The notes under the pieces: generated by a model
Databases searched by the model: none
The model's input: the letters and a program-made list of their open reading frames with translations, nothing else
Told to the model about the DNA's origin: nothing
Position numbers and translations under genes: made by a program
Origin: Cesiribacteraceae bacterium YIM B00369
Lineage (GTDB): Bacteria > Bacteroidota > Bacteroidia > Cytophagales > Cyclobacteriaceae
NCBI GenBank assembly: GCA_017948555.1
Contig: JAFMYY010000022.1
Span: 43,006 to 107,005, forward strand
Direction of reading: 5' to 3'
DNA length: 64,000 nt
In this document: one piece after another, positions 9,791 to 64,000 of the stretch
How the letters are laid out: every line of letters starts with the position of its first letter
Numbering within the stretch: the first letter of the stretch is position 1

Positions 9791-9900
9791 GTCGTCTGGT
9801 TGTTCAGTTTTAGTTATTTCTTTTAGTGGCTGGTGGTTTGTGCCTGATGCCTGGTGGCCGACGCACGATACTTGTAATCAGTGATCAGGACCTGAGCCTG

Positions 9901-9978
9901 CTTCTATTCTATTGTCCATCGTCTATTGTCCGTTGTCAAAATTCTCATGTCTCACGTCTCAAATCTCACGTCTCTATT
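9901..9978. repeat. degenerate heptanucleotide tandem-repeat element (copy A; GA-rich strand is the minus strand)
   Basis: Reverse complement reads GAGACGT GAGATTT GAGACGT GAGACAT GAGAATT TTGACAA CGGACAA TAGACGA TGGACAA TAGAATA; shares GACAATAGAC / TGGACAA / GAGnCGTGAG words with copies B and C. Confidence 0.6.
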
Positions 9979-46772: not shown

Positions 46773-47036
46773 AAAAATAACATTTTCGTCAGGTTGTCCT
46801 ATTAGTAATTAATTTCCTCCGTTTTTGTTGGGTAAGTTGCTGACTTTTATATGTTTTTAATAAAAATCCAGAACATTCATCTTTCCTATACTACAGCTTA
46901 TAAAAAGAAATGGCATTACCTCCAAAAAGGAGCTCCTGTTCATGAGCCGTATAAGAGGAAAAATAATCCTTAACAATTTTCAGGATAGAATAACAGATAT
47001 AAAAAAATAAAATTTGTTGCTCTTAGAGGCGACACC

Positions 47037-48053
47037 TTAATCTAATTCCACTATAGCTTTAATTACTCCATTGGCAGGATCCAACCAACTTTTAAACTCA
47101 TCTTTTACCTGTCCAAACAAAACCCGGTGTGTAATATAAGTTGTAGGGTCTACCTTTCCGCCTTTCATGGCGCTTACCACGTGCTCAAAATCCTGCCGGG
47201 TAGCATTGCGGCTACTCATTAAAGTTGCTTCCCTCTTATGAAACTCAGGATGACTCACCACCAGATCGCCTTTTTGTAAACCTACCAGCACATAGCGGGC
47301 CCCATGAGCCATATAGTAAAATGCATTATTGATGGCCTTTTGGTTTCCCGTAGCATCTATTACCACTGTTGGCATATCTCCATTAGTAATTTCTTTTAAT
47401 CTTTGCGCCACATCTTCCGTCATTGCATTAACAGTAAAAGGCACCTCAAGCTTATCCTTACAAAAGGAGAGCCTGGTTTCATTAACATCTAATGCAATTA
47501 CCTTAGCTCCTGCAATACGGGCAAATTCCATGATACCCAAACCAATGGGACCTGCACCAGTAACCAAAACAAATTCCCCTGGCTGTACATTCGCCCTCCT
47601 GACACCGTGCGCACCAATGGCGAGTGGTTCCACTAAAGCAAGTGCATCATAGCTCAGCCCTTCTCCGTGCACTAACGAGGATGAAGGAACTGAAAGGTAT
47701 TCCACCATTCCTCCATCAACATGTACTCCACACACATTAATATTACTGCAGCAGTTTGGCTTTCCTGACCGGCAGGCAATACACTCCCCGCAGTTTAAAT
47801 AAGGAATAAATGTTACAGACTCCCCTTTTTCAAAACCAACAGCATCATCAAAATCCACCAGTTCACCAGCCAATTCGTGTCCTAAAATCCTAGGATAGCT
47901 AAAAAATGGTTGTGTACCTTCAAAAGCGTGCAAATCGGTGCCGCATATGCCAATTCGTTTTACTTTTATAATTGACTGCCCCTTCTTCAATTCCGGTTTT
48001 TCTCCCTCGGTATACTCGAAGCTTCCGGGGGTGGTACATATTAATGTCTTCAT
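47037..48053 (-). CDS. zinc-dependent alcohol/polyol dehydrogenase (MDR family)
   Basis: GICGTDLH, GHELAG, structural-zinc Cys cluster CGECIACRSGKPNCC, GAGPIGLG Rossmann. Confidence 0.85.
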   Translation of the reverse strand: MKTLICTTPGSFEYTEGEKPELKKGQSIIKVKRIGICGTDLHAFEGTQPFFSYPRILGHELAGELVDFDDAVGFEKGESVTFIPYLNCGECIACRSGKPNCCSNINVCGVHVDGGMVEYLSVPSSSLVHGEGLSYDALALVEPLAIGAHGVRRANVQPGEFVLVTGAGPIGLGIMEFARIAGAKVIALDVNETRLSFCKDKLEVPFTVNAMTEDVAQRLKEITNGDMPTVVIDATGNQKAINNAFYYMAHGARYVLVGLQKGDLVVSHPEFHKREATLMSSRNATRQDFEHVVSAMKGGKVDPTTYITHRVLFGQVKDEFKSWLDPANGVIKAIVELD

Positions 48054-48101
48054 ATTTTTCAGTAAACAATTTAAATTATTGCAGGGGGATAATCGCCTGC
48101 C

Positions 48102-48947
48102 TTACAGTTTGTAAAAAGTAGTTGCGTTACCGCCAAAAAAAAGCTCCCGCTCATGAGCTGTAAAAGAGGAAAAATAATCTTCTACAATCCCCAGCACTTC
48201 TTTATAAGAGGCCGCTACCAGACAAACCGGCCAGTCGGAGCCGAACATAATTCTTTTAGTACCAAATGCTTCTACAATCACATCCAGGTAAGGACGAAAA
48301 TCTTCCTTTTTCCAGTTCTGCCAGTCTGCCTCGGTAACCATACCGGAAATCTTACAGTATGTATTTTCATTTGCTGCCACTGCCAGCATATCCTTTTTCC
48401 ATTCTTCAATTTTCCCGCCCCGGATGTCAGGCTTTGCCAGATGATCTACCACAAATGGCTGATCCGGAAAAGCTGCAACAAATTCACGGACAGGCTTCAG
48501 CTGGTTTGGAAATATGAGGACATCGTAGGTATAACCAAACTGCCTTAACTTGCTGATGCCTCTCATAAAAGCAGGATGCAGCATAATAGCCGGATCTTCT
48601 GCGCCCTGTAAAACATACCGGAAGCCTTTTAACTTAGGGTATTGCTTCAAAGCAGAAAGCCTTTCTTCCACATCTTCAGCCCAAAAGTCCACCCATCCAA
48701 CTATTCCTTTTATAAAATCATGCTTTCCGGCATTTGCAAGTTGATAGGTATTTTCAGCCTCTGACTGGTCAGACTGCACTACTACACACCCATCTATACA
48801 ATTCTCCTTCAATACAGGCTCTAAATCCTCAGGTAAAAAATCACGCTGGATTACAGCCATTTCCTCCGTTATCCAGCTGTCCCGCACAGGGTTAAACTGC
48901 CAAAAATGTTGGTGCGAATCAATTCTTTGCATTTCCTTCAATCTCAT
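48102..48947 (-). CDS. amidohydrolase-2 family lactonase (L-fucono-/L-rhamnono-1,5-lactonase-like)
   Basis: IDSHQHFW N-terminal metal motif of the amidohydrolase_2 TIM-barrel family; about 280 aa. Confidence 0.75.
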   Translation of the reverse strand: MRLKEMQRIDSHQHFWQFNPVRDSWITEEMAVIQRDFLPEDLEPVLKENCIDGCVVVQSDQSEAENTYQLANAGKHDFIKGIVGWVDFWAEDVEERLSALKQYPKLKGFRYVLQGAEDPAIMLHPAFMRGISKLRQFGYTYDVLIFPNQLKPVREFVAAFPDQPFVVDHLAKPDIRGGKIEEWKKDMLAVAANENTYCKISGMVTEADWQNWKKEDFRPYLDVIVEAFGTKRIMFGSDWPVCLVAASYKEVLGIVEDYFSSFTAHERELFFGGNATTFYKL

Positions 48948-48950
48948 TTT

Positions 48951-49280
48951 TTACAATTTAAAAATCCGGTCCATCAGGATCCATTTCTCCCCTTCTTTTG
49001 CCCAGGGGAGCGGCTTTTGGAATTTCCACATTAGTTCTTCCCATTCCTGCACCTTAGGATTGCCAGCATCCATTGCTGCTTTCTTTTCAAAACTAAAAGC
49101 ATCGTCTGCTTCCATGATCATAAAAAGCCTGTTACCTGTCCGGTAAATCTCCATATCAGTAATTCCGGCATCCAGAATGCTCTTTTTTATTTCAGGCCAC
49201 CCATTTTGGTGCCAATACTCATATTCAGCTATCAATTCAGTATCTTCTTTCAAATCAAGCGCTAAACAATATCTGGTCAT
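48951..49280 (-). CDS. L-rhamnose-mutarotase-family protein (likely L-fucose mutarotase)
   Basis: About 109 aa; YEYWHQNGWPEI...NRLFMIME...WEELMWKFQ matches the RhaM fold pattern. Confidence 0.8.
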   Translation of the reverse strand: MTRYCLALDLKEDTELIAEYEYWHQNGWPEIKKSILDAGITDMEIYRTGNRLFMIMEADDAFSFEKKAAMDAGNPKVQEWEELMWKFQKPLPWAKEGEKWILMDRIFKL

Positions 49281-49352
49281 AATTATTTTTCAAGCTAAAG
49301 GACAGGGAATTAAATTTTATGGTTTATACCTCAGTATGCTTCAATCAAACCC

Positions 49353-50690
49353 TTACACCACCTTTGGCCTGACTTTGCCTGTTAAAGCCTCCTGGCTGCC
49401 TCCATGGTGCTGATGATCTGCTGCTTCCGGTTTACCTTCTTTAAGTGCATATAAGGCAACAACCAGAAAACAGGCCAGTGGCACATAAAAGGCATCGCTG
49501 ATGCTCCCTGATAAATCGGAAAGCTGGCCCTGGACTGCAGGTAAAACCGCACCGCCTAAAATAGCCATAATCAGCCCGGAGCCACCAATTTTAGTATCTT
49601 TCCCCAAGCCCCGTATACCTAAACCATAAATAGTAGGGAACATCAGCGACATACAGCCGGAAATTCCTATTAATGCATAAACAGCCATCTGCCCGCCTCC
49701 AAATATAACGACAAGTGTCAGCGCCATAGCAGCCAGGGAAGCAAAAAGCAGTAGCTTTCCTGCTGAAATAATTTTCATCAAAGCTGTAAAAACAAACCTG
49801 CTCACCATAAATAAAACCAGTGCTGCCATATAGTAATCAGAGGCGCCTGCTTCGGTAAGGCTAAGCTCCTGCATTACATAGCGGATTGTAAATGACCAGA
49901 TGCCAATTTGTGCCCCTATATAAAAGAACTGTGCCACCACTGCCCAAACATAATGAGGTGTTTTAAATAATCTTTTAAAAGTAGGCCCTAAATCCAGCCT
50001 GGAGCCATCATCGGAAGCTTTGGGCATATCAGTAAATTTAACCACCAGCCAAAGCACTATTAGAAAAACAGCAACACCTACGTAAGGACCCATCACTGCT
50101 GTTAACTCTTCGGATTGAATAGCGGCTAATTGCTCCTCACTCATTCCCGCCCTTTCATTTGCACCTGACAGGTTTAACTGGCTAAGAATGAAAACCTGAC
50201 TCAGGAATACTCCTGTTATGGATCCTATCGGGTTAAAAGCCTGTGCAAGATTTAAGCGGCGGGTACCGGTAGCATCCGGCCCCATGGCTACTATATAAGG
50301 GTTTGCCGCGGTTTCCAGTATTGAAAGTCCTCCTGCCAAAACGAATAGCGCCACCAAAAAATGACTGTAGGCCATGGTTATGCTTGCAGGGTAAAACAAT
50401 AAGGACCCAAGGATAAACAATCCCAACCCTAAAAGAACGCCGGTTTTGTAGGTATACTTCTTGATCAGGATGGCTGCAGGCAGGGCCAGACAAAAATAAG
50501 AGCCATAAAAAGCCACCTGTATCCATGAGGTCTGGAAATCGGTCATGCTCATTATCCGCTTGAAGGCCGCCAGCAGGGTATCGGTCATATTATTAGCAAG
50601 TCCCCATAAAAAGAAAAGACTGGTTACCAGAATAAAAGGCCAGACATTTCCTACGCTGATGAGGGATGTGTTGGAGGACCGGTTCTTCAT
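49353..50690 (-). CDS. fucP: L-fucose:H+ symporter (MFS)
   Basis: N-terminus WPFILVTSLFFLWGLANNMTDTLL matches FucP; 12 TM. Confidence 0.85.
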   Translation of the reverse strand: MKNRSSNTSLISVGNVWPFILVTSLFFLWGLANNMTDTLLAAFKRIMSMTDFQTSWIQVAFYGSYFCLALPAAILIKKYTYKTGVLLGLGLFILGSLLFYPASITMAYSHFLVALFVLAGGLSILETAANPYIVAMGPDATGTRRLNLAQAFNPIGSITGVFLSQVFILSQLNLSGANERAGMSEEQLAAIQSEELTAVMGPYVGVAVFLIVLWLVVKFTDMPKASDDGSRLDLGPTFKRLFKTPHYVWAVVAQFFYIGAQIGIWSFTIRYVMQELSLTEAGASDYYMAALVLFMVSRFVFTALMKIISAGKLLLFASLAAMALTLVVIFGGGQMAVYALIGISGCMSLMFPTIYGLGIRGLGKDTKIGGSGLIMAILGGAVLPAVQGQLSDLSGSISDAFYVPLACFLVVALYALKEGKPEAADHQHHGGSQEALTGKVRPKVV

Positions 50691-50740
50691 ATTTCTTTGG
50701 TGTTAAGTAGTAAGTATAGAGGTAATGGAGACACTTTTTT

Positions 50741-51781
50741 TTATTCAGGGCAGGAATAATATGCCTTTATCAGACCTTTTTCTTTCATTGCTTTCCAGAA
50801 TGGAGCCGGAACCTTCACCCGGGCGATATCAACATTCTCCTTTACCCTTTCCGGATTCGAGGAGCTTAAGGCAATGCTTACCACCCCCGGGGCGCACAGG
50901 CCAAACTGTACAGCAGCCTCTGCAGGTTTTACATCAAAATCCTTGCAGATTGAAAAGAATTGAGCTCTCCATTGTAATTTTTTCCTGTCCTCCTCATTTG
51001 CCGCATCCACCAGCTTATAGTCACAGTAGTCGCCGCCTGTTAAAAAGCCTCCATGAAAAACAGCAGAGTTAAATATCTGCACTACTTCTTTTTCCAACGT
51101 TTGCATAAAAGCGAAAAGGTCTTCGGGGTGGCTCATAATAGTCATACTGTTGGCAATCATCACCCAATCGAGCTTTACATCCCGGAATATTCGCTGAATA
51201 ACGGGCCATTTTTTTGCCCCCACTCCAATGGCCTGCACTTTCCCCTGCTTCTTTAGCTCCTCCAGCGCTTTGTATGCCCCTAAAATATCCTGATAGAGCT
51301 TGGCTGCCTCCGCTTCGCTCCTCGCCTGCGCCATATACTCATCAGGGTCGTGTACAGATACCAGTTGAGGAATATAGCCCTGCAGCAATTCATTTCCCTG
51401 CTCAAAGCATTCCATAATACCTTCGTAACTTATTTTCTGAACGGCATCATGCTTCAGCTCACGCCATACCCCCTTTTCGAATGTTGGCTCCGGGGTTTTA
51501 AGCGCTGTACGTACCCAGCCCAGTTTATTGCTGATGATTACCTCATCCTGCTTTACCCCCAACTCTTTCAGGCTCTTTCCTAAAGCTTCCAGCGCAAGCC
51601 CCGCCCCATATTTTCCTGCAGAATCAAACACTGCCGGTTTAGGGGAGTGAAGCACATGCTGCCTCACAATTTCCTGCTTCACCTTTTCATCAAGGGCTAC
51701 ATAGAGGTTTCCTAAACCACTGGTACCATAAATAACCGGTGGCATTTTTAATTCTTTTAGGTTTGTTTGATTTCCTGACAT
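50741..51781 (-). CDS. aldo/keto reductase (candidate L-fucose / D-threo-aldose 1-dehydrogenase)
   Basis: AKR TIM-barrel motifs (IYGTSGLGN); position in a fucose cluster. Confidence 0.75.
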   Translation of the reverse strand: MSGNQTNLKELKMPPVIYGTSGLGNLYVALDEKVKQEIVRQHVLHSPKPAVFDSAGKYGAGLALEALGKSLKELGVKQDEVIISNKLGWVRTALKTPEPTFEKGVWRELKHDAVQKISYEGIMECFEQGNELLQGYIPQLVSVHDPDEYMAQARSEAEAAKLYQDILGAYKALEELKKQGKVQAIGVGAKKWPVIQRIFRDVKLDWVMIANSMTIMSHPEDLFAFMQTLEKEVVQIFNSAVFHGGFLTGGDYCDYKLVDAANEEDRKKLQWRAQFFSICKDFDVKPAEAAVQFGLCAPGVVSIALSSSNPERVKENVDIARVKVPAPFWKAMKEKGLIKAYYSCPE

Positions 51782-52194
51782 CAGAAGAAATTAATCACTA
51801 GGAATTTACAAAAAAATAGCTGGTGCTCTATTCCAACAATTGCCCAAAATAAGAAAATAATGCGAAAGAACAATAAGTTTTTTTTCTACCCTTTCACAAA
51901 AAACCAAAATAAAACGCAAAAAAACCAAAGGAAACAGCTTCCATAGCGGGAAGAATTCGAAAGTTAAGAAAAGGACTGTTATCCTTTTTCCAGAAGGCAG
52001 GCGATATCAACAGCATTAAAAGTCCACTATGCCTCAATTTAAATTTTCAGATCCGGTCCAAAATCATTATCAGTTAAAAATGACAATCAGTAAAGGTAAT
52101 TTCTGCAGCAAAAACAAAAGTCTCAACGCCCGTAAAAAATCAGAACCCCTGCATAGCACAAACCACAGCTAAACCAAGGGCCGGAAAGCCTGAA

Positions 52195-52230
52195 ACAAAA
52201 AAAACCCGGCTGTTACACCGGGTTTTTTCA
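52195..52230. terminator. bidirectional terminator downstream of the yciE-like gene
   Basis: AAAAAAAA-ACCCGG-CTGTTACA-CCGGGT-TTTTTT. Confidence 0.6.
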
Positions 52231-52255
52231 TTAGTATAGAATGCTAAATCTATAA

Positions 52256-52756
52256 TTACTTCTGCGCTTTTTCATTTACGCTGTCGATCGCAATTTTATT
52301 CAGTTTCTCGTCAGCAGCCTTTTCTTCATTCAGGGTTTCTTCCAGAAGACCAGCTACTTCGTCAAGTCCTAAACGCTTTGCGTAATGGTGAGCAGTACCA
52401 TAGCCTGCCATTTCATAATGCTCCACGCGCTGAGCTGCGGCAATTAAGCCGGCATCTTTCACGTCGCTTTCGGCATCCATCTTCAGCATTTCTTCACCTT
52501 CTTTAATAAGGCCTGCCATTGCTTCGCACTTCTCGCCTTTTACGCTTATGTTGCAAATTTCGCCAATTTTTTCAATGCGCTCTTTTTGCTTTTTGGTTTC
52601 TTCCAGGTGAGACTCAAAAGCTTTTTTCAATTTGCTGTCACTTGCTTTTTCAGCCATTTTTGGAAGAGCTTCAGACAACTGGGTTTCAGCGCTATATAGG
52701 TCTTTTATTTCGTGTTCAAAAAGATCTTTTAATGATTTTAATTTATCACTAGCCAT
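52256..52756 (-). CDS. YciE/YciF-family ferritin-like stress protein (DUF892)
   Basis: LKDLFEHEIKDLYSAETQ...EHYEMAGYGT pattern of DUF892. Confidence 0.8.
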   Translation of the reverse strand: MASDKLKSLKDLFEHEIKDLYSAETQLSEALPKMAEKASDSKLKKAFESHLEETKKQKERIEKIGEICNISVKGEKCEAMAGLIKEGEEMLKMDAESDVKDAGLIAAAQRVEHYEMAGYGTAHHYAKRLGLDEVAGLLEETLNEEKAADEKLNKIAIDSVNEKAQK

Positions 52757-52967
52757 AATATTTTGGTTTTAATGGTTAAAAAAATATTGTTGCATTATTT
52801 CCACAACACCTCATTATACTCGCTTAGCGATTGTAAGGTTTCCCCTAACTATTCTTTTTATTAAAAACCTTTAAATTTCTGCAAATCACAACATTACATT
52901 AACTTTTTCTTAAACTTCACATCGATTATATCCTTTATATAGTTACCGTTTACCTATATGACAAAAA

Positions 52968-55900
52968 CTATATCCCGCGCACCTCATCCACAGAGGGTGT
53001 TTCTCCGTTCAAACGATACAACTGCTTATCTGACAAGGCACTCCTGATCCCGTATAAGGCGTGGCTTACATTCTCAATCTGGGCCAGCATCTGCGCCATA
53101 TTATTTCCCCCGAAAGCTTTTGCCTTCTGGCTTTTTTGAAAGATGGCCTTAATTTCTTCCCAGCGCATTTTTTCCTTTTCACTTATTCTGCCTGTCAGCT
53201 CTTTAAACTTCAACAGGTTGGCCTCTGCTCCGGTGGTAAGGGTTTGGGATTCCCCTTCATAATGCGAAAGAATGAGCGTTTCCAGCTCCTTTTCATTCAT
53301 TACCGGCATTACCTTTTCGGCCAGCTTGCTCATGTTTCTGTACGATCCCTGCAGCTTAAAAGGAGGCTCTGTCCGGTATTCCTCTGCCTGGGCGGCAGAA
53401 GCGATATAGGCAAGGTTCACCTCCAGCACCACATCCCTGATCTTCAACAGCTTTTCTAAAATACTTATGTACTCATTAATTTCCTGCGGAGAATGATTGG
53501 CCTCAAATTCCATTCCTTCGCGCGAACCGGTTTCAGCAACCTTTACAAGGGTAATTACATCCTTCTGGCTCTTCCCTGCCAGCCTGGCAAGGGTGGCATT
53601 CGAGGTAAGGCAGTTTTCAATATAGCTCAGCTTAAACACCTCTGCACTGTCGCCAATAATATCGCCCAAGTTATAAATATCGGCACGGTTGGCAAGCATA
53701 TCCGGTATCTGAAACTTATCACCGCTTTCGGTGTAGGGATTACCCGCCATTACCACGCACACTTTCCTGCCACGGAAATCGTAGGTTTTGCTGCGGCCTT
53801 TATAAATACCTTCTATCTTCCGCTGCCCATCGCAAAGGGAGATAAACTTCTGCAGGAATTCCGGATTACAGTGCTGGATATCGTCCAGGTAGATCATCAC
53901 ATTGTCGCCCATTTCAAAAGCCAGATTCAGCTTTTCCAGCTCCTGCCTGGCACCTGAGTTTTTGGCATCCGCCGGATCCACCGCCGTTACATCGTGCCCT
54001 ATGGCGGGTCCGTTGATCTTCATAAACACCAGCCCCAGCCTGTCGGCTATGTACTCCATAAGAGTGGTTTTACCATAGCCCGGAGGGGAGATCAGCAGCA
54101 ACATACCCATAAGGTCTGTGCGCTTGTTTTCGCCTGCTGTACCCATTTGCTTGGCCAGGTTATTGCCTATAAGCGGAAGGTACACCTTGTCTATTAACTG
54201 ATTACGAACAAAGCTGCTCATTACCCGTGGCTTAAACTCCTCCAGCCGCAGGTCCTGCGCAAAACGGCTGGTAAGTTCTTTCTTCAGCGCTGTAAATGCC
54301 AGGTTTGCCGGCACGGTTACCTGCTCAAAGTGCTGCAGGCGGGCCATAAACTCATTAAAGCGAAGTGTATACTGTTTATTCTCTATCAGGCCATGGGTTC
54401 CCTGCAAGCCTTTTAGCTCCTCCTGCAAATGAGCCTGCATTACCTGCCCATCCTGGTAACCGCCCGCCAGCAGCCACACCGCTGTTTCATCTATCCACCC
54501 CAGCTGCTCAGGATGCCCTGCCGCATAGGCACGCAGCCAGCTTCTAGTCAGCTTATATGCATGCACAGGACTGTCTTTCAAGGCCTTAACAGACTGTTCA
54601 TACTCCTTCCAGGCTCCTTTTTTTTCCAGGTGTTTCGCAAAGGCCTGGTATAAAGTGCCCGCCGCTCCTGCCACCACAAAAGCCGCTGATTTTGCAAGGG
54701 AGTGGAACAGAAAGGCTGCCGCTTCCGCTGCTAACTCCGGAGAGAAGAGGCGGGTATCGGCTATATATTCCAGAATTGCTGTTTTCAGCTCTTCCTGAAT
54801 TCCTTCAAACTCTTTTGTTTCCGGAAAAACCTGCAGAATATAACCGGCACCTTTTAACTGGTGCTCCAGACTCTTTTTCTGCTCCGGATGGGCAAAATGC
54901 TGCCAGAACATCATGGCACAGGAGCGGGCTTCGCTGCCGTAGCGCAAAAGCCCTGCTGTTTGCCTGATCTGCAACAGCACCTGCAGGATAAGGGTGGCAT
55001 CTGCGTCGTGCACTCCTTTAACATAACCTTCGTTATAGCGGGTGGCCATAAACTGCTGTACATACTGCCTCAGCTCATCGGCAGTCTTTTTTTGCAGATC
55101 AGCCAGGGAAGTCTCTCCCCCGGCTGCCGTTTCCGCAGCCTGTAATATTTTATAGGCAAGGTACTCTCCCCTGTATACCTGCTGATTTTCAGAGATCAGG
55201 GACTGATCCCACACCCCTCGCAGACTGTTGAGGGAAGGATCATTTATTTCCTCAAAAAACCCGGTTCCTGCCAGGTGAAAGTATAGTGCATCATTACGTT
55301 GCACCAGACTCAGCGCCAGTGGCTGTGTATTTACAGTAAACAGATGTGTACCGAAGCGAATAGTGTTTTCACCGGCAACGTACAGCTCATTTTTATCTTT
55401 CAGCTGCCGTACGGCATCTTCCTTAATGGTCTTTAGCTTGCTCTGTATATCATCGGCTTTTACCGAATCGCCCAGCTCCTTCAGTTCCTGTACAAGGCTG
55501 CGGAGCTTTTCTATCATCAGGTCGGCTGCAAAATACCCGTTTATCTCACTTACTTCCGTAAAGCGGACAAGGCGGTTTTGCACCGCTTTAAGTATGCGCT
55601 CCGCTGCCTGCTGCAGGGTGTTAGCCCGCTTGTTACGCGCCTCGGTAAGGCTTAGTTTGCGCGATTCAAAGGCATTATAAATCTCATCTCTTTTTATGGA
55701 AAGCTGGTCTACATACTCATCAAACTCAGAGAAGCGCCCTTCCAGCTCTTCCAGCTGCACCATCAGTTTGGTAAGGTATTCATCTGTTTTTTCAGGAGTA
55801 TCGCAAACATCCAGGTAGTTAATTACACCCTGATCCACCAGCTTAATCTGTGCATTGAACTCCGCCTTGCCTTCCACCAGCATCAGCTCCCTGCGCTTCC

Positions 55901-57896
55901 GCTTTATACCTGCTTTCAGCTGATTAAAGTGGGCATAAATAGCCGATATATTATCGATGATACGGGTGGTTTCTGTAGCATCCTCAATCTTAAGGTTACT
56001 TACAATTTCAATGAGCATTTCCAGCTCTCCCGAAAGTTTGGTCGCCTGCTCATCCAGCTCATTAATGCGGCTCACTTTGGCCGCTTCCTCAATGGCTTTT
56101 TCAAGCTCTTTTACCTTTTCCTGGTAAGGCTTCAGCGCATCATCGCGCAGCAGGAATTTCACACAGTTTGCCGACACCTCCCGGCTGAACTTCTGCAGCT
56201 CTTTTTCATACTGCCCGATAGCTTCAGTATCGGCATAGCGCAAATCCTTCAGGGAAATTACCGCTCCGCTCAGCCTCCTCAGCTCTGCCAGAGATGCCAC
56301 AAAGTCCAGTATATGTTCGGCTTTCCTGCGCCTGATCTTCTTTATCAGCTCGTCTGCCTCTCCTAAAACCTGCCCCGTCTGCCGTTTTGTATTTTCCCGT
56401 ATGCTGTTTACTTTTTCAAACTCATCCACCGCAGCGGAGGCGGTATGCCTGATATCCCGAAGGGGCTCCTCCAAGGCGGCATCCTGGTGCTTGAGCCAAT
56501 GGTAATGGTCGAGCAGAGCAGTACTGTTACTTATAAGGTCGTGGTAAAGGTCAGCATAGGAATCGCCTTTATTGATGAGGTTCAGCAGCTCCCTCGACTC
56601 GGCAATGGCGCGCACAATTTCGCGGTTGCCTATTTTATAGAGGTAAGAGTCGCTGGTTTGCGCCAGCTGGAAGTTTGTGCCGGTAAAAGGGGTTTGCCAG
56701 ATCTGCACAGCATGGTGCTTTGCCGCTTCCTTGTCGCCGCGGAAAAAGCACATTTCACCGTTTTCGAAAATTGAATAGCCGTGGCAATATATAGGAGTGC
56801 CAATTTGCTGCTCAATCAGATTATACGACAGCAACAGGTAAAGCCCCTTCACACGGTTATAAAATACATACAGGTAATCCTCCCCGTTAGGGCTGGCAAT
56901 GCGCTTTTCAAACAACAGGCTACTGGTAACTTGCTCAAAAAGCTTGTATTCGCCTGTTTGCAGGTAGTATCCGTTCGGAAATAAAACTCCCTGATCGTCG
57001 GGAAGCAGCACACAGGCATCCTTAAGGGCATCGACCCGGCGAACAGCCTGAATTTTTGCATTATACACCAGGTAACGATAAGCCTCTTCCTGGTAAGGCT
57101 TTATTTTCAGCAGCACCAGGTTGCCTACAAAGGCATACTGAATATCGGCATCGTCGAGGGTCTGGTCTTTATTCTCCACTGCTTCGGAATAAATCCCCTG
57201 CCCTTCCTGAGTATTGTCTTCTATCTTGATAGTAAGGTCGCCGCCCACTGTTTCCACAAAAAGCCGGTCTTCGATACTAATGTGGGGGTAAGTTCCCTGC
57301 CGGTGCATATCGCGGGTAGCCCTTTTCCAGCGGAATTCATGCTGATCAGGAAAACCAAACTCATGTTCACTGCGGTTGTCGAGATAGCGAAGCCGGCTTC
57401 CTTCCACCAGCCACTTAAATACTTTTATATCAGTGAGGCTTTTGCCAATCCGGAAAACCATGTAAAGATGCGGCCCCACAAGAGCGAACTTTACAAAGTG
57501 GGTATCTTTATAATACTTGTATAGCTTCTGAAAATCATCCTGAAAGGTTTTGTCGTCCAGCAGCCCATATTCTTCCTGGAAAAATGTATGGTCTTCATAC
57601 CTGTAAATACTGAAAACATCGGGCAGCTCTGCCTGTGCTTTAAGGCCCAGGTGTACGTTGTAACCGAATATAAAGCTGTTAGCTACCGGAATCATATCCT
57701 GCGGCACGCAATTGTGCTCCGTGCTGATGCGCTCCGTAGCAAGCAATTTGCTCTCAATGGAGCCGAACACTTCCTTACGGCTGTTATTCAGCCCTTCAAT
57801 TTTTGCAGCCAGTTCCTTCGCAGCTTTTTGAAGCCTGCCCTGAAGAATTTCGTAAGTACCTGTCTCCAGCTGTTGTTTATTTATATCTTCACTCAT
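52968..57896 (-). CDS. giant (1642 aa) coiled-coil protein with a single C-terminal MoxR/AAA_5-type AAA+ ATPase domain
   Basis: Residues about 1-430 beta-rich, about 430-800 coiled coil, about 800-1230 alpha-helical. ATPase at about 1250-1450: Walker A ISPPGYGKTT, Walker B and arginine region MIYLDDIQHCNPEFLQKFISLCDGQRKIEG (MoxR DEINRA...LLEAM equivalent), sensor region VMAGNPYTESGDKFQIPDMLANRAD (MoxR ATQNP...LDRF equivalent). No second P-loop. Confidence 0.85.
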   Translation of the reverse strand: MSEDINKQQLETGTYEILQGRLQKAAKELAAKIEGLNNSRKEVFGSIESKLLATERISTEHNCVPQDMIPVANSFIFGYNVHLGLKAQAELPDVFSIYRYEDHTFFQEEYGLLDDKTFQDDFQKLYKYYKDTHFVKFALVGPHLYMVFRIGKSLTDIKVFKWLVEGSRLRYLDNRSEHEFGFPDQHEFRWKRATRDMHRQGTYPHISIEDRLFVETVGGDLTIKIEDNTQEGQGIYSEAVENKDQTLDDADIQYAFVGNLVLLKIKPYQEEAYRYLVYNAKIQAVRRVDALKDACVLLPDDQGVLFPNGYYLQTGEYKLFEQVTSSLLFEKRIASPNGEDYLYVFYNRVKGLYLLLSYNLIEQQIGTPIYCHGYSIFENGEMCFFRGDKEAAKHHAVQIWQTPFTGTNFQLAQTSDSYLYKIGNREIVRAIAESRELLNLINKGDSYADLYHDLISNSTALLDHYHWLKHQDAALEEPLRDIRHTASAAVDEFEKVNSIRENTKRQTGQVLGEADELIKKIRRRKAEHILDFVASLAELRRLSGAVISLKDLRYADTEAIGQYEKELQKFSREVSANCVKFLLRDDALKPYQEKVKELEKAIEEAAKVSRINELDEQATKLSGELEMLIEIVSNLKIEDATETTRIIDNISAIYAHFNQLKAGIKRKRRELMLVEGKAEFNAQIKLVDQGVINYLDVCDTPEKTDEYLTKLMVQLEELEGRFSEFDEYVDQLSIKRDEIYNAFESRKLSLTEARNKRANTLQQAAERILKAVQNRLVRFTEVSEINGYFAADLMIEKLRSLVQELKELGDSVKADDIQSKLKTIKEDAVRQLKDKNELYVAGENTIRFGTHLFTVNTQPLALSLVQRNDALYFHLAGTGFFEEINDPSLNSLRGVWDQSLISENQQVYRGEYLAYKILQAAETAAGGETSLADLQKKTADELRQYVQQFMATRYNEGYVKGVHDADATLILQVLLQIRQTAGLLRYGSEARSCAMMFWQHFAHPEQKKSLEHQLKGAGYILQVFPETKEFEGIQEELKTAILEYIADTRLFSPELAAEAAAFLFHSLAKSAAFVVAGAAGTLYQAFAKHLEKKGAWKEYEQSVKALKDSPVHAYKLTRSWLRAYAAGHPEQLGWIDETAVWLLAGGYQDGQVMQAHLQEELKGLQGTHGLIENKQYTLRFNEFMARLQHFEQVTVPANLAFTALKKELTSRFAQDLRLEEFKPRVMSSFVRNQLIDKVYLPLIGNNLAKQMGTAGENKRTDLMGMLLLISPPGYGKTTLMEYIADRLGLVFMKINGPAIGHDVTAVDPADAKNSGARQELEKLNLAFEMGDNVMIYLDDIQHCNPEFLQKFISLCDGQRKIEGIYKGRSKTYDFRGRKVCVVMAGNPYTESGDKFQIPDMLANRADIYNLGDIIGDSAEVFKLSYIENCLTSNATLARLAGKSQKDVITLVKVAETGSREGMEFEANHSPQEINEYISILEKLLKIRDVVLEVNLAYIASAAQAEEYRTEPPFKLQGSYRNMSKLAEKVMPVMNEKELETLILSHYEGESQTLTTGAEANLLKFKELTGRISEKEKMRWEEIKAIFQKSQKAKAFGGNNMAQMLAQIENVSHALYGIRSALSDKQLYRLNGETPSVDEVRGI

Positions 57897-58210
57897 CAGA
57901 TGCTTTTTTTAGAATAATCGGCTGTTCCTAAAGCCAATATTATAAAGACCAGGAGGCTGCCTGCCGCAAAAGCAAGCGCAGCCCAAATAATCTGTCCTGT
58001 CATTAACCCTGCTACTCCGCAAATGGCCTGTAAAACAGCCATTACCATCAGGTTTGTTCCTGCCCAGCGGGCAAGTCCTGGCTTATCGGTGGTGGCTTCG
58101 GCATTATAGACTACCAAAACCTCCAGCTTTTGCCGGTACCGCACAATACAGCCTGCCCATAAAACCAGGCAGCTTACCAGCAACAAAAAGATTAATAATG
58201 CTGTGTGCAT
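57896..58210 (-). CDS. 3-TM mini-membrane protein translationally coupled to the giant ATPase gene
   Basis: 104 aa with three hydrophobic helices; its stop TGA overlaps the ATG of the downstream giant gene (TGATG). Confidence 0.55.
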   Translation of the reverse strand: MHTALLIFLLLVSCLVLWAGCIVRYRQKLEVLVVYNAEATTDKPGLARWAGTNLMVMAVLQAICGVAGLMTGQIIWAALAFAAGSLLVFIILALGTADYSKKSI

Positions 58211-58249
58211 GAAAAAATTGTTTTTCTTTAGATGTTAGATATGAAACAA

Positions 58250-58410
58250 GATTCAAGAACCAGGAGTCAAGAGTCAAGACAATAGACTTTAGATAATGGA
58301 CAAAGAAGGAGTAGTGAGTGAGTAAATGAATGACAGACTGAAAATGAAATTAAAAAAAACAAGTCCAATTTTCAATTCTATCATTCTATCATTCCATCAC
58401 CCACCCACTC
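58250..58410. repeat. degenerate heptanucleotide tandem-repeat element (copy B)
   Basis: GAGTCAA GAGTCAA GACAATA GACTTTA GATAATG GACAAAG AAGGAGT AGTGAGT GAGTAAA TGAATGA CAGACTG AAAATGA ... then ATTCTATC ATTCTATC ATTCCATC ACCCACCCACTCC. Confidence 0.6.
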
Positions 58411-58417
58411 CTTAAAT

Positions 58418-60559
58418 TTACTTCTCCAGCATTTCAATCGTTTTGTCCGAAACGCCTATGGTAGTGGCAAGGCTGCTCAGGTTTTGCAGACTCAGACGGG
58501 TTTGCTCATTAGTGGTGCTGTTGATCATTTTCACCAGCAGTGCTGAGATGCTCAGGTTGCGGATATCTTCAGTTGTAAGGCCGAATTTATCTACAAAATC
58601 CTTCAGCTGGCTTTTAAAATCAGTACCTCCGTTTGGACTGAAGAAGGTATTCTTCATATCCGTGAGAGTAGGGCTTTTGCTTACCATACCGTCTATGGCT
58701 TTTCCTTTGGCTATGGAACCAACAATCTGGTTAAAGAACATGGTTTCCCCACCTATTATATCAATATTAGATGCCTTCAGTGCTTCTGCAATAACAAGGG
58801 CCTGGGCGTCGGCAATATCCTTCTGGATTCCGATATTGGCCATTTCAATTTCCTTGTCCTTGTTCAGGCGCAGCTTAAACTCTTCGTGGTCTTTGCCTGG
58901 TCCGTCGAGCTTGCTCATGGCAGCTGCTTTCTCGCCTATTCCTTTTGCTTCGGCAGCAAACTTCTGCTCCATTACACGTGCTTCGGCAGCACCCTGTATT
59001 TCAATAGCTTCGGCTTTGGCACGGATAATTGCTGCTTCAGCTTCACCCAGTTTTACATCGGCATCGGCTTTGGCAAGGCCTTTCACCCTGATTGCCTTAG
59101 CTTCTGCATCTGCTGTATCTTCAATAACACTGGCTTCGGCTTCACCCTGCTTGCTTAAGGCGGCAGCTTTGGCTTCCATTACCTGTGCTTCACTTATACC
59201 AAGTGCCGCTTCTTTCGCAGCTTCGGCCTGTGCCATAATCTTGATGGCTTCAGCTTTCATATCGGCACTGTTGCGCTCGGCTTCTGCATCTATCATCATT
59301 TGCTTCGAGCGGAATTCAGCAGCATCACGTGCAGCCTCTGCAGACTTGATCTGTTTCACCAGGCTCTCCTCAGCTTCCCTTTCGGCATTAATAATGGCCA
59401 CCCGCTTCACGCGCTCAGCCTCAGCATGTGCTTTGGTGTCTTTAATGCGCTCTTCCTCTTCAACCGTTCCTTTCTCCACAATAACCCGCTCACGAATTAC
59501 TTCCTGTATATTCTTACGTTCTTCTTCCAGTGCTTTCTCTTTCTCGATCTGAGCAAGTGAAACTATTCTGTCGCGCTCATTTGCTTCGAGTCCGCGGGCC
59601 TGCTCCACGCGCTCCTGCTCAATGGCATCGGTTTTCTCCTTATTGCGCATGGCCACCAGTATCTGGCGTTCCTTATTCTGCTCCGCTATTTCAATTTGTT
59701 CCTCTGCAGCTATGCGTGCATTCTCAGACTTCAGGCGCTCCTCAGAACGAACCTTTTCAATTTCAGCAGCCTCTTTTGCTTTAATGCTCTGGATTTCGCG
59801 GTACTGCTTTTCTTCACTTTCGGCCAGCTGGCGGTCAAGTGCCAGTATGGTTTCACGGGCTTCCACATCCTGCTTCTTCAGCGTTTTTTCCTTCTCCCGC
59901 TCAATCAGGTTCGCTTCCATTTTCTGCTTCGCCGTAAGATCTATGATCTTTTTCATACCTTCGGAGTCCAGAATATTGCTTTCGTTCAGGAACTCCAGCG
60001 GCGTTTGCTCCAGGTAATCAATGGCGCAGTCATCGAGAATATAACCGTTCAGGTCAGTTCCTATAATCTGCAGAATTTCGTCTTTAAACTCCTTACGGTT
60101 GGTATATAAGTCAACAAAATCAAAGCCTTTCCCTACCGCTTTCAGTGCTTCTGAAAACTTGGCATCGAACAGCAATTCCATTTGCTGAGGATCGGAAGCA
60201 CGCTTACAGCCTATACTCTGAGCTACCGTCATTACATCCTCTTTCGTCTGGCTTACCCGCACGAAAAAGGTTACTTTAATGTCTGCCCGCATATTGTCGC
60301 GGCAAATAAGACCTTCTTTACCTGTGCGGCTGATCATAATGGTTTTTACAGTAATATCCATTACTTCGAGCTGCTGAATTACAGGAATGACCATAATTCC
60401 GCTAAAAGATACCTTTGGCCCGCCCATGCCGGTTATTACCAGCGCCTGACCCTGCTCCGCCTTCCGGTAGAGCTTAGCGATAAATATCGCTATGGCAAAC
60501 AGGACCCCTATAAGGATCAGTCCGCCCATTAACAATGCATTTCCTGCTATGCTTTCCAT
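58418..60559 (-). CDS. flotillin-family SPFH protein (YqiK-like) with long Ala/Glu/Lys coiled-coil region
   Basis: N-terminal TM, SPFH/band-7 domain, about 300-aa EA-repeat coiled coil, flotillin C-terminal domain. Confidence 0.9.
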   Translation of the reverse strand: MESIAGNALLMGGLILIGVLFAIAIFIAKLYRKAEQGQALVITGMGGPKVSFSGIMVIPVIQQLEVMDITVKTIMISRTGKEGLICRDNMRADIKVTFFVRVSQTKEDVMTVAQSIGCKRASDPQQMELLFDAKFSEALKAVGKGFDFVDLYTNRKEFKDEILQIIGTDLNGYILDDCAIDYLEQTPLEFLNESNILDSEGMKKIIDLTAKQKMEANLIEREKEKTLKKQDVEARETILALDRQLAESEEKQYREIQSIKAKEAAEIEKVRSEERLKSENARIAAEEQIEIAEQNKERQILVAMRNKEKTDAIEQERVEQARGLEANERDRIVSLAQIEKEKALEEERKNIQEVIRERVIVEKGTVEEEERIKDTKAHAEAERVKRVAIINAEREAEESLVKQIKSAEAARDAAEFRSKQMMIDAEAERNSADMKAEAIKIMAQAEAAKEAALGISEAQVMEAKAAALSKQGEAEASVIEDTADAEAKAIRVKGLAKADADVKLGEAEAAIIRAKAEAIEIQGAAEARVMEQKFAAEAKGIGEKAAAMSKLDGPGKDHEEFKLRLNKDKEIEMANIGIQKDIADAQALVIAEALKASNIDIIGGETMFFNQIVGSIAKGKAIDGMVSKSPTLTDMKNTFFSPNGGTDFKSQLKDFVDKFGLTTEDIRNLSISALLVKMINSTTNEQTRLSLQNLSSLATTIGVSDKTIEMLEK

Positions 60560-60600
60560 AATTAAAGGTTTATGATGAATTGGTTAAAGATTTTGTTATT

Positions 60601-61230
60601 TTATAAGATATAAGGCTCAACAAGGTAACAGCGCTTATCCGGCTGGTACTCCAGCACCAGGGCTGTGTCGCCGTTTTTTACAGCAGTACCGGCTTTACTG
60701 CTGACCATTAATATAATGGGGGCACCATTACCTTTTTGCATTACCACTGCCTGCCCTATGCGCCCCTCCTGCAGATTGCTTTGCAGGGTGCATATTTTCC
60801 CTATTACACTATAGTTCTTTTCTTCCTCCATTTTATCGAAAAGTTTAACAAATGGAAGGGTGAGAAATTTGGCAGCCATCAAAGAAATGAAGAATCCTGC
60901 GCCCAGCGTCAGCAGGCCGGGCAGGAGGCTATAAATGCCCAGCAGGTCGTTTACCAGGATGCAGAAAAGCCAGAGCGGGAGCACCATGAAGGTAAGAAAT
61001 ACCATAAGCGGTATCCGGCCAAGGTTGAAAAAGCGCAATATATTATTTAGCCATTCAAGCCCGCCTTCCGGATGGCCGTCCATATCATGATCCAGGTCTA
61101 CATCCACATCGAACAGATCAAGATCAACAGCACCTATTAATACTGTGCACCAGTAGAGGATAATGGCTATGAGTAGTAAGGTGGGGATTATATTTGCCCC
61201 TGCAATGGCAAAATTCAACAATTCAATCAT
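60601..61230 (-). CDS. YqiJ/NfeD-like membrane protein (OB-fold C-terminus)
   Basis: 209 aa: TM helices, acidic DLDLFDVDVDLDHDMD linker, C-terminal NfeD-type OB fold; 41 bp upstream of the flotillin gene (yqiJK arrangement). Confidence 0.8.
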   Translation of the reverse strand: MIELLNFAIAGANIIPTLLLIAIILYWCTVLIGAVDLDLFDVDVDLDHDMDGHPEGGLEWLNNILRFFNLGRIPLMVFLTFMVLPLWLFCILVNDLLGIYSLLPGLLTLGAGFFISLMAAKFLTLPFVKLFDKMEEEKNYSVIGKICTLQSNLQEGRIGQAVVMQKGNGAPIILMVSSKAGTAVKNGDTALVLEYQPDKRCYLVEPYIL

Positions 61231-61401
61231 GAGTCAGGTGGTTATAATTATCGATTGAAATCTTTTCAGGCGGAGTCAGTTCCGGGAAAGGGACAGAGAC
61301 AGCACAACCCTTCCCGCATCCCGGAAACCAACCTTTTTTTACAATCCTCCTCCGGGGCTATGCGGATACTGGCATTAAATTATTCTGCCAGGCAGAGGGA
61401 A

Positions 61402-62127
61402 TTATTTACCTGCTTCGCTTCCACCTATTCCAAGCCGGGACTTCAGCGCTGCCAGCTCAGCGGATGTTTTAGATGAAGCAGAAGTGTTTTCCAGTACTTT
61501 ATCAATTTCCTGATCGATGCTGCGGCTTTCATTGGCAATTTCTCCGTAAGATTCTGCCAGCGCTTCCTGCTGCGCCACCTTGTCTTTCATACGCTCCAGC
61601 ATCGATACAGTACTGCTGCTGTCAATCTGGGCAAGCTGCTTATTCAGTCGCTGCGTGGCATCGCTCACCTTAACACGGGCCTTGAGGGTTTTAAGCTCAT
61701 TTTCCCATTTGCTGATGTTACTCTTAATGGTTTTAATATTCCCGTCAAGCTGCGACACGCTTTGCTCAAACTTCTCACGTTCCTCTTTTGCCCGTTGCGC
61801 CTGCTGTATACTATTTTCCTTTTTTAATAAAGCCTCACCGGCAAGGCGGTCGGCCTCCTCAGAGGCAACTTCTCCTGCCTGCGCTTTTTTCAAAAGCATT
61901 ACTGCCTTATGCTCATAATCACCTGCAATATTGGTATAAGTCTCGACATCATTCCTGGCGCGGATGGCAAGTGCTTTAACCTCTGCCAGCGCATGCAGGC
62001 TTTTATCCAGTTGTTCCTTCATATCGCGGATTCCCTGCTCTGTAAGCCTGATAGGATTCTCCAGCTGGTCTACAGCAGAATGTGCTTCTGACTGGCCGAT
62101 TTTAAAAAGTCTTGTGAAAATATTCAT
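61402..62127 (-). CDS. pspA: PspA/IM30 (phage-shock protein A, ESCRT-III-like)
   Basis: MNIFTRLFKIGQSEAHSAVDQLENP N-terminus and full-length coiled-coil pattern of PspA/Vipp1. The start is chosen at the internal Met matching the family N-terminus. Confidence 0.85.
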   Translation of the reverse strand: MNIFTRLFKIGQSEAHSAVDQLENPIRLTEQGIRDMKEQLDKSLHALAEVKALAIRARNDVETYTNIAGDYEHKAVMLLKKAQAGEVASEEADRLAGEALLKKENSIQQAQRAKEEREKFEQSVSQLDGNIKTIKSNISKWENELKTLKARVKVSDATQRLNKQLAQIDSSSTVSMLERMKDKVAQQEALAESYGEIANESRSIDQEIDKVLENTSASSKTSAELAALKSRLGIGGSEAGK

Positions 62128-62165
62128 GTTGATTAATTTTAAAGTGAACATTAAAGTTTAAACAC

Positions 62166-62182
62166 TGCTCATAAAATGAGCA
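62166..62182. promoter_or_regulatory. perfect palindrome TGCTCAT-AAA-ATGAGCA upstream of pspA
   Basis: 17-bp inverted repeat about 40-55 bp upstream of the pspA start codon (minus strand); candidate operator. Confidence 0.35.
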
Positions 62183-62284
62183 CCCGTTGAGAATGAAGGA
62201 TGTGCTTTATAGCAGCCATAATGTTAAACTTGCCTGGTTCTTCCTTTGACCGGCGCAACTTCTCCGGTCAGCATTATACCTGCC

Positions 62285-62680
62285 TTACTGGTGTGCAAAC
62301 CGCAGCAGCTCGTCGGAGTATTCGCTCAGCAAAAGCCCCAGAGCATTAAAGGTTCCCTCCATTTCGTTTAAATCGAGGTTTTCCAGCATCAGGGTATTCC
62401 TGAACAGCACTTTCGTTCCGGAATCATCCACCACGAACGCTCCTGCTATCATATCCCTGTTTTTCTGAAGCAGGCTTTTGTACAACTCTATGCTTTCCTG
62501 CCCTATTTCAAAGATAAACTGTTCAATAATCAGGATAGGGTCCGCACAGCCAATTACCAGGTTACGTATCCCCATCTCTTCATTATCCACCACAAACAGT
62601 CCGTCATCACCGTTCACATGCCGGATGGTACATCCCATTTCCAGCAAAAACTCTTTAACTTTATCAAAATAGCAGTTCAT
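62285..62680 (-). CDS. YbjN-domain protein
   Basis: 131 aa; KVKEFLLEMGCTI...ILIIEQFIF pattern consistent with the YbjN (T3SS-chaperone-like) fold. Confidence 0.65.
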   Translation of the reverse strand: MNCYFDKVKEFLLEMGCTIRHVNGDDGLFVVDNEEMGIRNLVIGCADPILIIEQFIFEIGQESIELYKSLLQKNRDMIAGAFVVDDSGTKVLFRNTLMLENLDLNEMEGTFNALGLLLSEYSDELLRFAHQ

Positions 62681-62827
62681 ATGGGCAAAAGTTATACTTT
62701 AGCAATCGGTTAATATCCAAATGTAAAAAATATTATCATTTGAATATTATGTTTTTTGTTATTCTTATATATTATGGCGGCTTTTTTATAGTTTTTGGCT
62801 TCATTCTCAATGGTGTTTACGTAAATA

Positions 62828-62837
62828 TATAAAAAAC
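62828..62837. promoter_or_regulatory. perfect 10-bp palindrome TTTACGTAAA in the divergent control region
   Basis: Lies between the divergent ybjN-like and XRE/S24 repressor genes, about 20-50 bp upstream of the repressor start. Confidence 0.35.
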
Positions 62838-62856
62838 AGTTGCTAAAAAAAATAGA

Positions 62857-63726: not shown

Positions 63727-63825
63727 CCAGTCCTGAGTAGTGAGTCGTGAGTCCTGAGGTGGAGGAAATTCAGAATGAGAGAATGCAGGAATGAACGAAT
63801 GACAGAAGCGGAGAGGGACAACAGT
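63725..63825. repeat. degenerate heptanucleotide tandem-repeat element (copy C)
   Basis: CCTGAGT AGTGAGT CGTGAGT CCTGAGG ... GAATGAGAGAATGCAGGAATGAACGAATGACAGAAG; shares GAGTAGTGAGT and AATGAATGACAGA with copy B. Confidence 0.6.
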
Positions 63826-64000
63826 GCAAAATATGCTCATAAAAGGGACAGGAACTATGGAGCTTTTCAACAGGCTGATTTTTCTTTCAGGCCCTGAACC
63901 ATACATCGTATTCAATAAACCTATTCCCAGATTCAGTCAGAATTCTGTAAATTACCAGATAATTAATTCAAGTTGCGAGAAACAAAAATAGCCTGTCCCT

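Follow-up and report, generated by a model that had tools for sequence, protein, structure and literature searches.

A DUF3686-type AAA+ ATPase of 1642 residues encoded in a flotillin–PspA operon of a Cesiribacteraceae bacterium

The DNA considered here (the window) is a stretch of 64,000 nucleotides from Cesiribacteraceae bacterium YIM B00369 (GenBank assembly GCA_017948555.1, contig JAFMYY010000022.1, positions 43,006 to 107,005 of the forward strand), and the subject is a very large ATPase gene within it, together with the operon to which the gene belongs. The window ATPase is not a new kind of protein, but a member of a known family that is represented both by Pfam models and by the published comparative genomics of Ravi et al. 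2024 (mSystems, PMC11237479). It combines a full-length DUF3686 domain, DUF7902 and a single C-terminal AAA+ module, and its gene is accompanied by flotillin and YqiJ-like genes; the extended variant of the operon, with a CesT/Tir–PspA dyad upstream on the same strand, is present in the window. On balance, we lean towards the view that the ATPase is the energy-supplying subunit of a flotillin-based membrane-stress module, in which it remodels the scaffold. The flotillin/YqiJ/PspA/ATPase arrangement has already been described by comparative genomics, as has the wider distribution of shorter flotillin–YqiJ–ATPase operons (Ravi et al. 2024, PMC11237479). This operon context, which is decisive for the interpretation, was missing from an initial annotation of the window.

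Family membership and distribution

The 1642-residue open reading frame (ORF) reported by the initial annotation at 52968–57896 is real, and runs from ATG to stop on the minus strand, which the annotation had left unstated. A search space of about 5.8 billion proteins contains 5420 homologues, and the best 120 of these, for which the architecture is described, are 1578–1848 residues long, align with 95–100% of the query, and have an identical Pfam set in collinear order. Their database names are “DNA repair ATPase” at NCBI and “MoxR-like ATPase” at JGI. In a species survey where one genome per species was scanned, at least 585 genomes contain a full-length relative; these relatives are 46–67% identical to the window protein over residues about 10–1620, come from six phyla, and include proteins encoded on complete chromosomes. 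A fusion or assembly artefact, which the initial annotation had raised against its own reading, is thereby ruled out, since the same collinear architecture recurs in complete genomes and in hundreds of species.

A profile of the ATPase region gives 1036 matches among 1.84 billion cluster representatives, 441 of them at E values up to 1e-30. All 1036 are family members or fragments thereof, with the module starting near residue 1170–1280 of proteins that are 1590–2036 residues long, and no other architecture with this AAA+ module occurs among these representatives. A size of about 1600 residues and the order DUF3686–DUF7902–AAA are thus the norm of a widespread family. The description of the protein as highly atypical holds relative to MoxR, but not within this large family, where the architecture is invariant. 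Profile searches do not assign the protein to a family of known function; they place the head and part of the rod in Pfam DUF families. No paper that mentions DUF3686 was found in the literature.

Homologues from Planctomycetota (L012, L019, and L021 in the locus sample described below) are 53–54% identical to the window protein, the Blastopirellula homologue 54%, and homologues from Flavobacteriia, which belong to the same phylum as the window, 49–52% (L034, L035, L040, and L044). The closer similarity to Planctomycetota may point to horizontal transfer of the module across phyla.

Domain architecture of the window ATPase

The ATPase and its parts have the following positions in the window:

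52968–57896, minus strand: the complete ATPase ORF, 1642 residues, ATG to stop, with Pfam DUF3686, DUF7902, AAA and AAA_5 and full-length homologues
56499–57815, minus strand: N-terminal helix and all-beta head (DUF3686), residues 28–466, from Pfam PF12458 and the structure model
55377–56498, minus strand: heptad-rich, segmented helical rod including DUF7902 (586–670), residues 467–840, from Pfam, heptad score and model
54222–55376, minus strand: small beta unit, all-helical middle domain and linker, residues 841–1225, from the model
53652–54221, minus strand: AAA+ alpha/beta core, residues 1226–1415
52971–53651, minus strand: helical lid or C-terminal domain with a variable tail, residues 1416–1642, from model helices and invariant residues

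The protein was modelled with AlphaFold in two parts, residues 1–1200 (alignment of 12 sequences, mean pLDDT 73) and residues 1195–1642 (mean pLDDT 72, with 75–87 in the core). No transmembrane segment was detected in the ATPase by hydropathy scan. The window ATPase is a soluble protein in which a beta-rich head is followed by a segmented rod of helices, a helical middle part, and one AAA+ module, and the beta-rich head and helical middle proposed in the initial annotation are borne out by the DUF3686 match and by the modelled strands and helices.

The head matches DUF3686 (PF12458) over the entire profile (E 4.3e-192; residues 28–466, profile positions 1–448 of 448). The model begins with a helix at residues 14–44 and places 24 strands within residues 68–383; the segment 358–416 is modelled with very low confidence. 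As for structural relatives, no confident match in the PDB was returned by Foldseek for the model of residues 1–1200 (E values 2e-4 to 0.15, TM scores at most 0.28), and the weak matches to the head are dominated by propellers, i.e., sortilin Vps10p, WD40 proteins, the clathrin terminal domain, and IFT-A. The head is probably a beta-propeller, in agreement with Ravi et al. A self-comparison of the head profile reveals no blade repeats at the sequence level, and the blades are not countable. The head also contains 56 residues that are invariant across phyla, located between residues 61 and 416 (window 56649–57716); many are Cys, His, Asp, Glu, or Asn, such as Cys63, Asp67, His205, Glu215, Glu226, Asn228, Asp249, Glu339, Asp340, Cys371, and His395. 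Invariant polar residues of this kind suggest that the head binds a specific ligand or metal or contains a catalytic site, and no search accounted for their role.

The rod includes the DUF7902 match (PF25472, E 1.4e-28, residues 586–670). A crude a/d-register heptad score, compared with the 99th percentile of shuffled sequence, exceeds that level only at residues 451–795 and in two short stretches (1174–1214 and 1580–1633). The model of the rod consists of ten helices, 16–58 residues long, between residues 476 and 837, and Foldseek returns weak matches to spectrin and alpha-actinin rods (E about 0.1). The initial proposal of a coiled coil of 370 residues therefore stands with regard to the heptad-rich segment, which is present at 451–795, but not with regard to its continuity, the rod being segmented rather than one uninterrupted coil.

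The middle part is modelled as strands at 861–883, helices at 909–1144, and further strands at 1158–1179, and residues 841–1225 match no Pfam family. It is also the least conserved region: among 73 sequences from six phyla, the mean cross-phylum identity is 81% in the AAA+ core, 57% in the head, 52% in the rod, and 34% in the helical middle. At the C-terminus, other phyla have a different or longer tail (L012, L021, L026, L043, L060, and L070). Extensions of about 180–350 residues occur 3′ of the matched region in homologues from Planctomycetota, Verrucomicrobiota, and Desulfobacterota; the one in the Desulfobacterales locus L026 (14900–15667) consists of ankyrin repeats (E 3e-22), and the others are without a Pfam family.

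The AAA+ module

The three motifs quoted in the initial annotation are all present. The Walker A motif SPPGYGKTT occupies residues 1270–1278 (window 54063–54089) with Lys1276 as the P-loop lysine, and is followed by MIYLDDIQHCNPEFLQKFISLCDGQRKIEG at residues 1334–1363 and MAGNPYTESGDKFQIPDMLANRAD at residues 1383–1406. A single P-loop is confirmed at the C-terminal end of a very long non-ATPase region, and no second P-loop was found in the entire 1642-residue protein. Walker B is formed by Asp1338 and Asp1339 (window 53880–53885), sensor 1 by Asn1386, and the candidate arginine finger is Arg1404 in the sequence LANRAD. The lid carries the invariant, sensor-2-like motif R1508-E-P-x-F-x-x-Q-G-S-Y-R1520. 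Lys1276, Asp1338, Asp1339, Asn1386, Arg1404, and the end of the lid motif (G1517-S-Y-R1520) are invariant in the 73 sequences.

The Walker B motif has the form hhhhDD instead of ending in DE, and the first position of Walker A is Ser in place of Gly or Ala. Because both features are invariant in the 73 sequences, they characterise the family and do not indicate a site in decay. The invariant catalytic positions, together with the 81% identity of the core, argue for an active and strongly constrained motor, and the AAA+ module is accordingly predicted to be probably active.

It is less straightforward to place the module among the AAA+ clades. The Pfam families AAA and AAA_5 both match residues 1266–1389 weakly, with PF00004 (35.6 bits, cut-off 21.2) ahead of AAA_5 (27.4 bits, cut-off 22), and AAA_3, i.e., MoxR proper, is not matched in any of 17 family members. 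Searches of PDB sequences, one with the single sequence and two with profiles, give p97, VAT, Rix7, and RuvB as the best matches, limited to about 40–70 residues around the P-loop; the aligned stretch (N-linker, Walker A, and β2) resembles classical AAA, and these searches did not assign a clade. A comparison by hhalign with nine Escherichia coli AAA+ proteins ranks RuvB at 96% probability, ClpX, ClpB, and FtsH at 92%, and RavA lowest at 19%, although these alignments mostly cover the P-loop only and rely on single-sequence templates, which makes them weak and not decisive. The paired arginines in the second region of homology of classical AAA proteins do not occur, and a single invariant arginine (Arg1404) is found at the arginine-finger position.

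The model of the module shows the canonical β1–β5 order and a long helical lid region. Its best fold matches are the ring-forming remodellers NorQ, CbbQ, midasin, and ClpA/B, and its closest structural neighbours are MoxR-class ATPases, with only a small margin over other clades (ClpA 12.4, ClpB-D2 12.2, classical AAA about 11). A pre-sensor-1 beta-hairpin is predicted between α3 and β4 at residues about 1360–1373 (model strands 166–171 and 174–179). A helix-2 insert hairpin is not present in the model, where a short helix and a loop (model residues 102–119, pLDDT about 84) lie between β2 and α2. As modelled, the module would be a divergent AAA+ domain with a predicted fold nearest to the MoxR/AAA_5 group, but not assignable to the MoxR family itself. 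It gives no AAA_3 signal, its model lacks a helix-2 hairpin, and no VWA partner gene was found in its neighbourhood. The initial assignment to MoxR/AAA_5 is thus retained for the nearest predicted fold; the stronger PF00004 match, the lack of an AAA_3 match, and the low rank of RavA do not favour the family label.

The operon and its conservation

The ATPase gene is the last of six genes on the minus strand, which follow the order CesT/Tir-like chaperone, PspA, YqiJ/NfeD-like protein, YqiK-like flotillin, small membrane protein, and ATPase. The genes upstream of the ATPase are, from first to last:

62285–62680, minus strand: CesT/Tir-like chaperone, which opens the operon (Pfam CesT_Tir_1 PF22550, E 1e-55; present in 19 related loci)
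61402–62151, minus strand: PspA/IM30, of the bacterial ESCRT-III superfamily (Pfam PF04012, E 2.7e-41)
60601–61230, minus strand: YqiJ/NfeD-like multi-transmembrane protein, 209 residues (weak Pfam YqiJ_N, about three transmembrane segments)
58418–60559, minus strand: flotillin-like SPFH protein, YqiK homologue, 713 residues (Pfam Band_7, one transmembrane segment)
57896–58210, minus strand: small membrane protein, 104 residues (about three transmembrane segments, weak DUF3784)

The flotillin consists of an N-terminal transmembrane segment, the SPFH domain, a long Glu/Ala-rich coiled coil, and a C-terminal region, and is 29% identical to E. coli YqiK over 449 residues (E 9e-48). Its extreme C-terminal tail was considered as a docking tail, but is not conserved and gave no lead. 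E. coli YqiJ agrees with the 209-residue protein in length and position, and BLASTP finds a weak similarity between the two (E 0.002). In an independent, precomputed annotation, a relative with 83% identity has the identical gene order.

The conservation of this neighbourhood was evaluated in 80 related loci from Bacteroidota, Planctomycetota, Verrucomicrobiota, Kiritimatiellota, Desulfobacterota, and Clostridia, which were queried with the neighbour proteins of the window and whose neighbour ORFs were also clustered all-against-all. Among the 64 loci that are informative, i.e., contain enough upstream sequence, 61 have a flotillin gene directly upstream of the ATPase on the same strand. Of 62 loci, 56 contain a YqiJ-like gene and 22 have PspA upstream; every PspA-positive locus with a named lineage belongs to Bacteroidota. 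The invariant core across phyla is therefore YqiJ-like, then flotillin, then ATPase. No other conserved partner was found in the 80 loci except the Bacteroidota-specific CesT/Tir and HTH-S24 genes (19–20 loci each), and no conserved gene was found downstream. A VWA/MIDAS gene is absent from the neighbours in the window, as noted initially, and also from the smaller clusters that were checked in the 80 loci, which contain unrelated housekeeping genes; the search covered these neighbourhoods and not the rest of the genome.

The spacer between flotillin and ATPase contains a small gene of a nuclease family in some loci, DUF559 (Vsr-like) in six and PDDEXK_3 in four (e.g., L006 at 9500–9943 and L037 at 9489–9941). 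These genes look like selfish or accessory insertions into the operon.

Compared with the operon of Ravi et al. 2024, nothing essential differs in the window. The window additionally has the DUF3784-like gene, which overlaps the start of the ATPase gene, a DUF892 gene downstream of the ATPase, and a divergently transcribed HTH-S24 regulator gene. It does not have the phospholipase D gene that is reported from some Proteobacteria (PMC11237479). The window is thus a clean example of the full CesT/Tir–PspA–YqiJ–flotillin–ATPase operon with a divergent regulator. PspA has also been noted together with band-7/FloT and NfeD by Popp et al. 2022.

Proposed function and alternative explanations

AAA+ machines are recurrently paired with SPFH cages, as for HflK/C with FtsH, and ESCRT-III is paired with Vps4. 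The ATPase has no transmembrane segment, whereas three of its partners (the small protein, the flotillin, and the YqiJ-like protein) are membrane proteins. In the function that we favour, the C-terminal AAA+ modules would assemble into a ring, hexameric as in other AAA+ proteins, and the head and rod would form an integral adaptor through which the ring docks on the cytoplasmic side of the flotillin/NfeD scaffold, in place of a VWA partner. Hydrolysis of ATP would then assemble, disassemble, or extract components of the scaffold, and in Bacteroidota the PspA polymer encoded in the same operon may be among them. This activity would likely come into play during envelope stress and its resolution.

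Several points weigh against this proposal. The physical interaction, the oligomeric state, and the substrate are all inferred from gene order, and the literature searched contained no experimental work on the ATPase or on a link between such an ATPase and flotillin. The flotillin operons of E. coli and Bacillus subtilis function without an ATPase of this type (Hinderhofer 2009), and three of the 64 loci (L016, L028, and L029) lack a recognisable flotillin or YqiJ-like gene within 7–10 kb upstream. Furthermore, Foldseek gave no informative structural match for the head and middle domains, and the DD-type Walker B together with the Ser-first Walker A may confer unusual hydrolysis kinetics.

A more far-reaching version of the scaffold-remodelling proposal, which we put forward tentatively and regard as a minority possibility, is that the family constitutes the ATP-driven remodeller so far missing for bacterial flotillin cages and, among Bacteroidota, also for PspA/ESCRT-III polymers. 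The propeller and helical-rod adaptor, reminiscent of membrane-coat and tether proteins, would here be part of the same protein as a divergent AAA+ ring, whose task would be to disassemble or reset the scaffold following membrane stress. If true, this would be the first bacterial counterpart of scaffold recyclers of the Vps4 or NSF type. A 2025 review (PMC7619361) states that bacterial PspA has no known Vps4-like ATPase. The window ATPase is a genetically tractable candidate for the energy-dependent step in the assembly and disassembly of bacterial flotillin scaffolds and PspA polymers.

The emphasis could also be reversed, such that the ATPase is a functional analogue of Vps4 with the PspA polymer as its primary substrate, to be disassembled and recycled, and with flotillin as a platform only. 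We consider this unlikely, since PspA is linked in 22 of 62 loci, all from Bacteroidota where the lineage is named, compared with 61 of 64 across phyla for flotillin. Pfam did not detect an MIT domain, and the model contains a pre-sensor-1 hairpin, which classical AAA domains of the Vps4 type lack.

The VWA partner acts as an adaptor for MoxR-class ATPases, and one can envisage a maturation chaperone of MoxR type in which the N-terminal 1200 residues replace that adaptor and the membrane context is incidental. Such an enzyme would insert a cofactor into a client enzyme or activate it, as for CbbQO with Rubisco and NorQD with nitric oxide reductase. The closeness of the modelled fold to NorQ and CbbQ is compatible with this scenario, but neither a VWA/MIDAS gene nor a conserved gene for a client enzyme was found in the 80 loci, AAA_3 is not matched, and RavA is the weakest of the nine E. 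coli references. With the linkage to flotillin and YqiJ-like genes too consistent to be incidental, this explanation appears improbable.

Somewhat more remote is the idea of an anti-phage or conflict system, in which flotillin/PspA would act as sensor at the membrane and the NTPase as the effector coupled to it. It would fit a large NTPase with an adaptor-like N-terminus, the DUF559 and PDDEXK_3 genes between flotillin and ATPase in some lineages, and the cross-phylum identities (54% for Blastopirellula versus 49–51% for Flavobacteriia) that hint at horizontal transfer. However, a search of five proteins against PADLOC-DB v2 gave only mad8 for the ATPase, at E 0.0045 over the P-loop region, and nothing or coiled-coil noise for the partners. 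No effector domain (nuclease, protease, TIR, etc.) was detected in the conserved core, and synteny that is kept over hundreds of species looks like that of a housekeeping or stress module.

A role as DNA repair ATPase, following the NCBI product name and the Pfam description of DUF3686, is very improbable: besides these database names, a weak similarity to RuvB at the level of the P-loop and the LexA-like S24 regulator, encoded divergently beside the operon, would agree with it, but Pfam detects neither a DNA-binding nor a nuclease domain, the conserved partners are without exception membrane proteins, the sole NCBIfam matches are to RuvB at 23 and 19 bits (cut-offs 282 and 299) over 46 residues, with the RuvB similarity covering about 40 residues around Walker A, and no paper was found that supports the name. 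The product name “DNA repair ATPase” is accordingly misleading.

Comparison with other ATPases and flotillin operons

As for HflK/C and FtsH, a scaffold of the SPFH family is linked to an AAA+ machine, here genetically, and the likeness is one of functional analogy. Unlike FtsH, the window ATPase has neither a protease domain nor a membrane anchor, and its partner is of the flotillin type (YqiK-like) and not of the HflK/C type. The similarity to Vps4 and ESCRT-III is that an AAA+ ATPase is co-encoded with a member of the ESCRT-III superfamily, PspA. The differences comprise the pre-sensor-1 hairpin in the model, the restriction of the PspA linkage to one phylum, and the absence of an MIT domain, for which a Pfam scan of the whole ATPase at E values up to 0.01 was negative. 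In comparison with MoxR-class ATPases with solved structures (NorQ, PDB code 9qh4, and CbbQ, PDB code 6l1q), the module of the window ATPase is preceded by 1225 residues and has a DD-type Walker B.

The arrangement of an NfeD/YqiJ-like gene followed by flotillin is shared with yqiJ–yqiK of E. coli and yuaF–floT of B. subtilis (Hinderhofer 2009). Those operons end after flotillin, whereas the window and at least 61 other loci add the gene for a 1600-residue ATPase. The flotillin of the window is also 160 residues longer than YqiK.

Regulator and flanking genes

The small membrane protein and two genes that adjoin the operon are more restricted in their occurrence. The adjoining genes are:

62857–63726, plus strand: putative regulator with HTH_3 and Peptidase_S24 (LexA/CI-like), divergent from the operon (Pfam)
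52256–52756, minus strand: DUF892, a YciE/YciF-like stress protein of ferritin fold (Pfam PF05974, E 3e-55)

The stop codon of the 104-residue gene overlaps the start of the ATPase by one base (TGATG). This overlap is kept only in the nearest relatives, L081 (9687–10001) and L082 (7852–8166), which were considered apart from the 80 wider loci, and the gene is absent from more distant loci. A divergent HTH-S24 gene is likewise found in 20 related Bacteroidota loci as well as in L081 and L082, and the LexA/CI-like gene suggests control of the operon by a self-cleaving repressor. Neither “S24” nor “LexA” occurs in Ravi et al. 2024 (PMC11237479). The intergenic region between the chaperone and S24 genes spans 62681–62856, and an inverted repeat, TGCTCAAAAAAAGAGCA, is located at 62858–62874. 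A scan of 52000–64000 for sigma-70 promoters and terminators gave no more sites than shuffled sequence; such a scan is unsuited to Bacteroidota promoters and was not used.

The DUF892 gene lies 211 nucleotides downstream of the ATPase, and is possibly co-transcribed with it. It is found in the same position in L081 and L082, but not in the 80 wider loci. Further downstream, an unrelated cluster for fucose and rhamnose utilisation (45585–51781, minus strand) includes an L-fucose:H+ symporter of the FucP type (TIGR00885, E 2e-140), an aldo/keto reductase, an L-rhamnose mutarotase, an amidohydrolase_2 protein, a Zn-dependent dehydrogenase, and a protein with a metallo-beta-lactamase fold. An S41 C-terminal processing protease is encoded at 43655–45277 on the plus strand.

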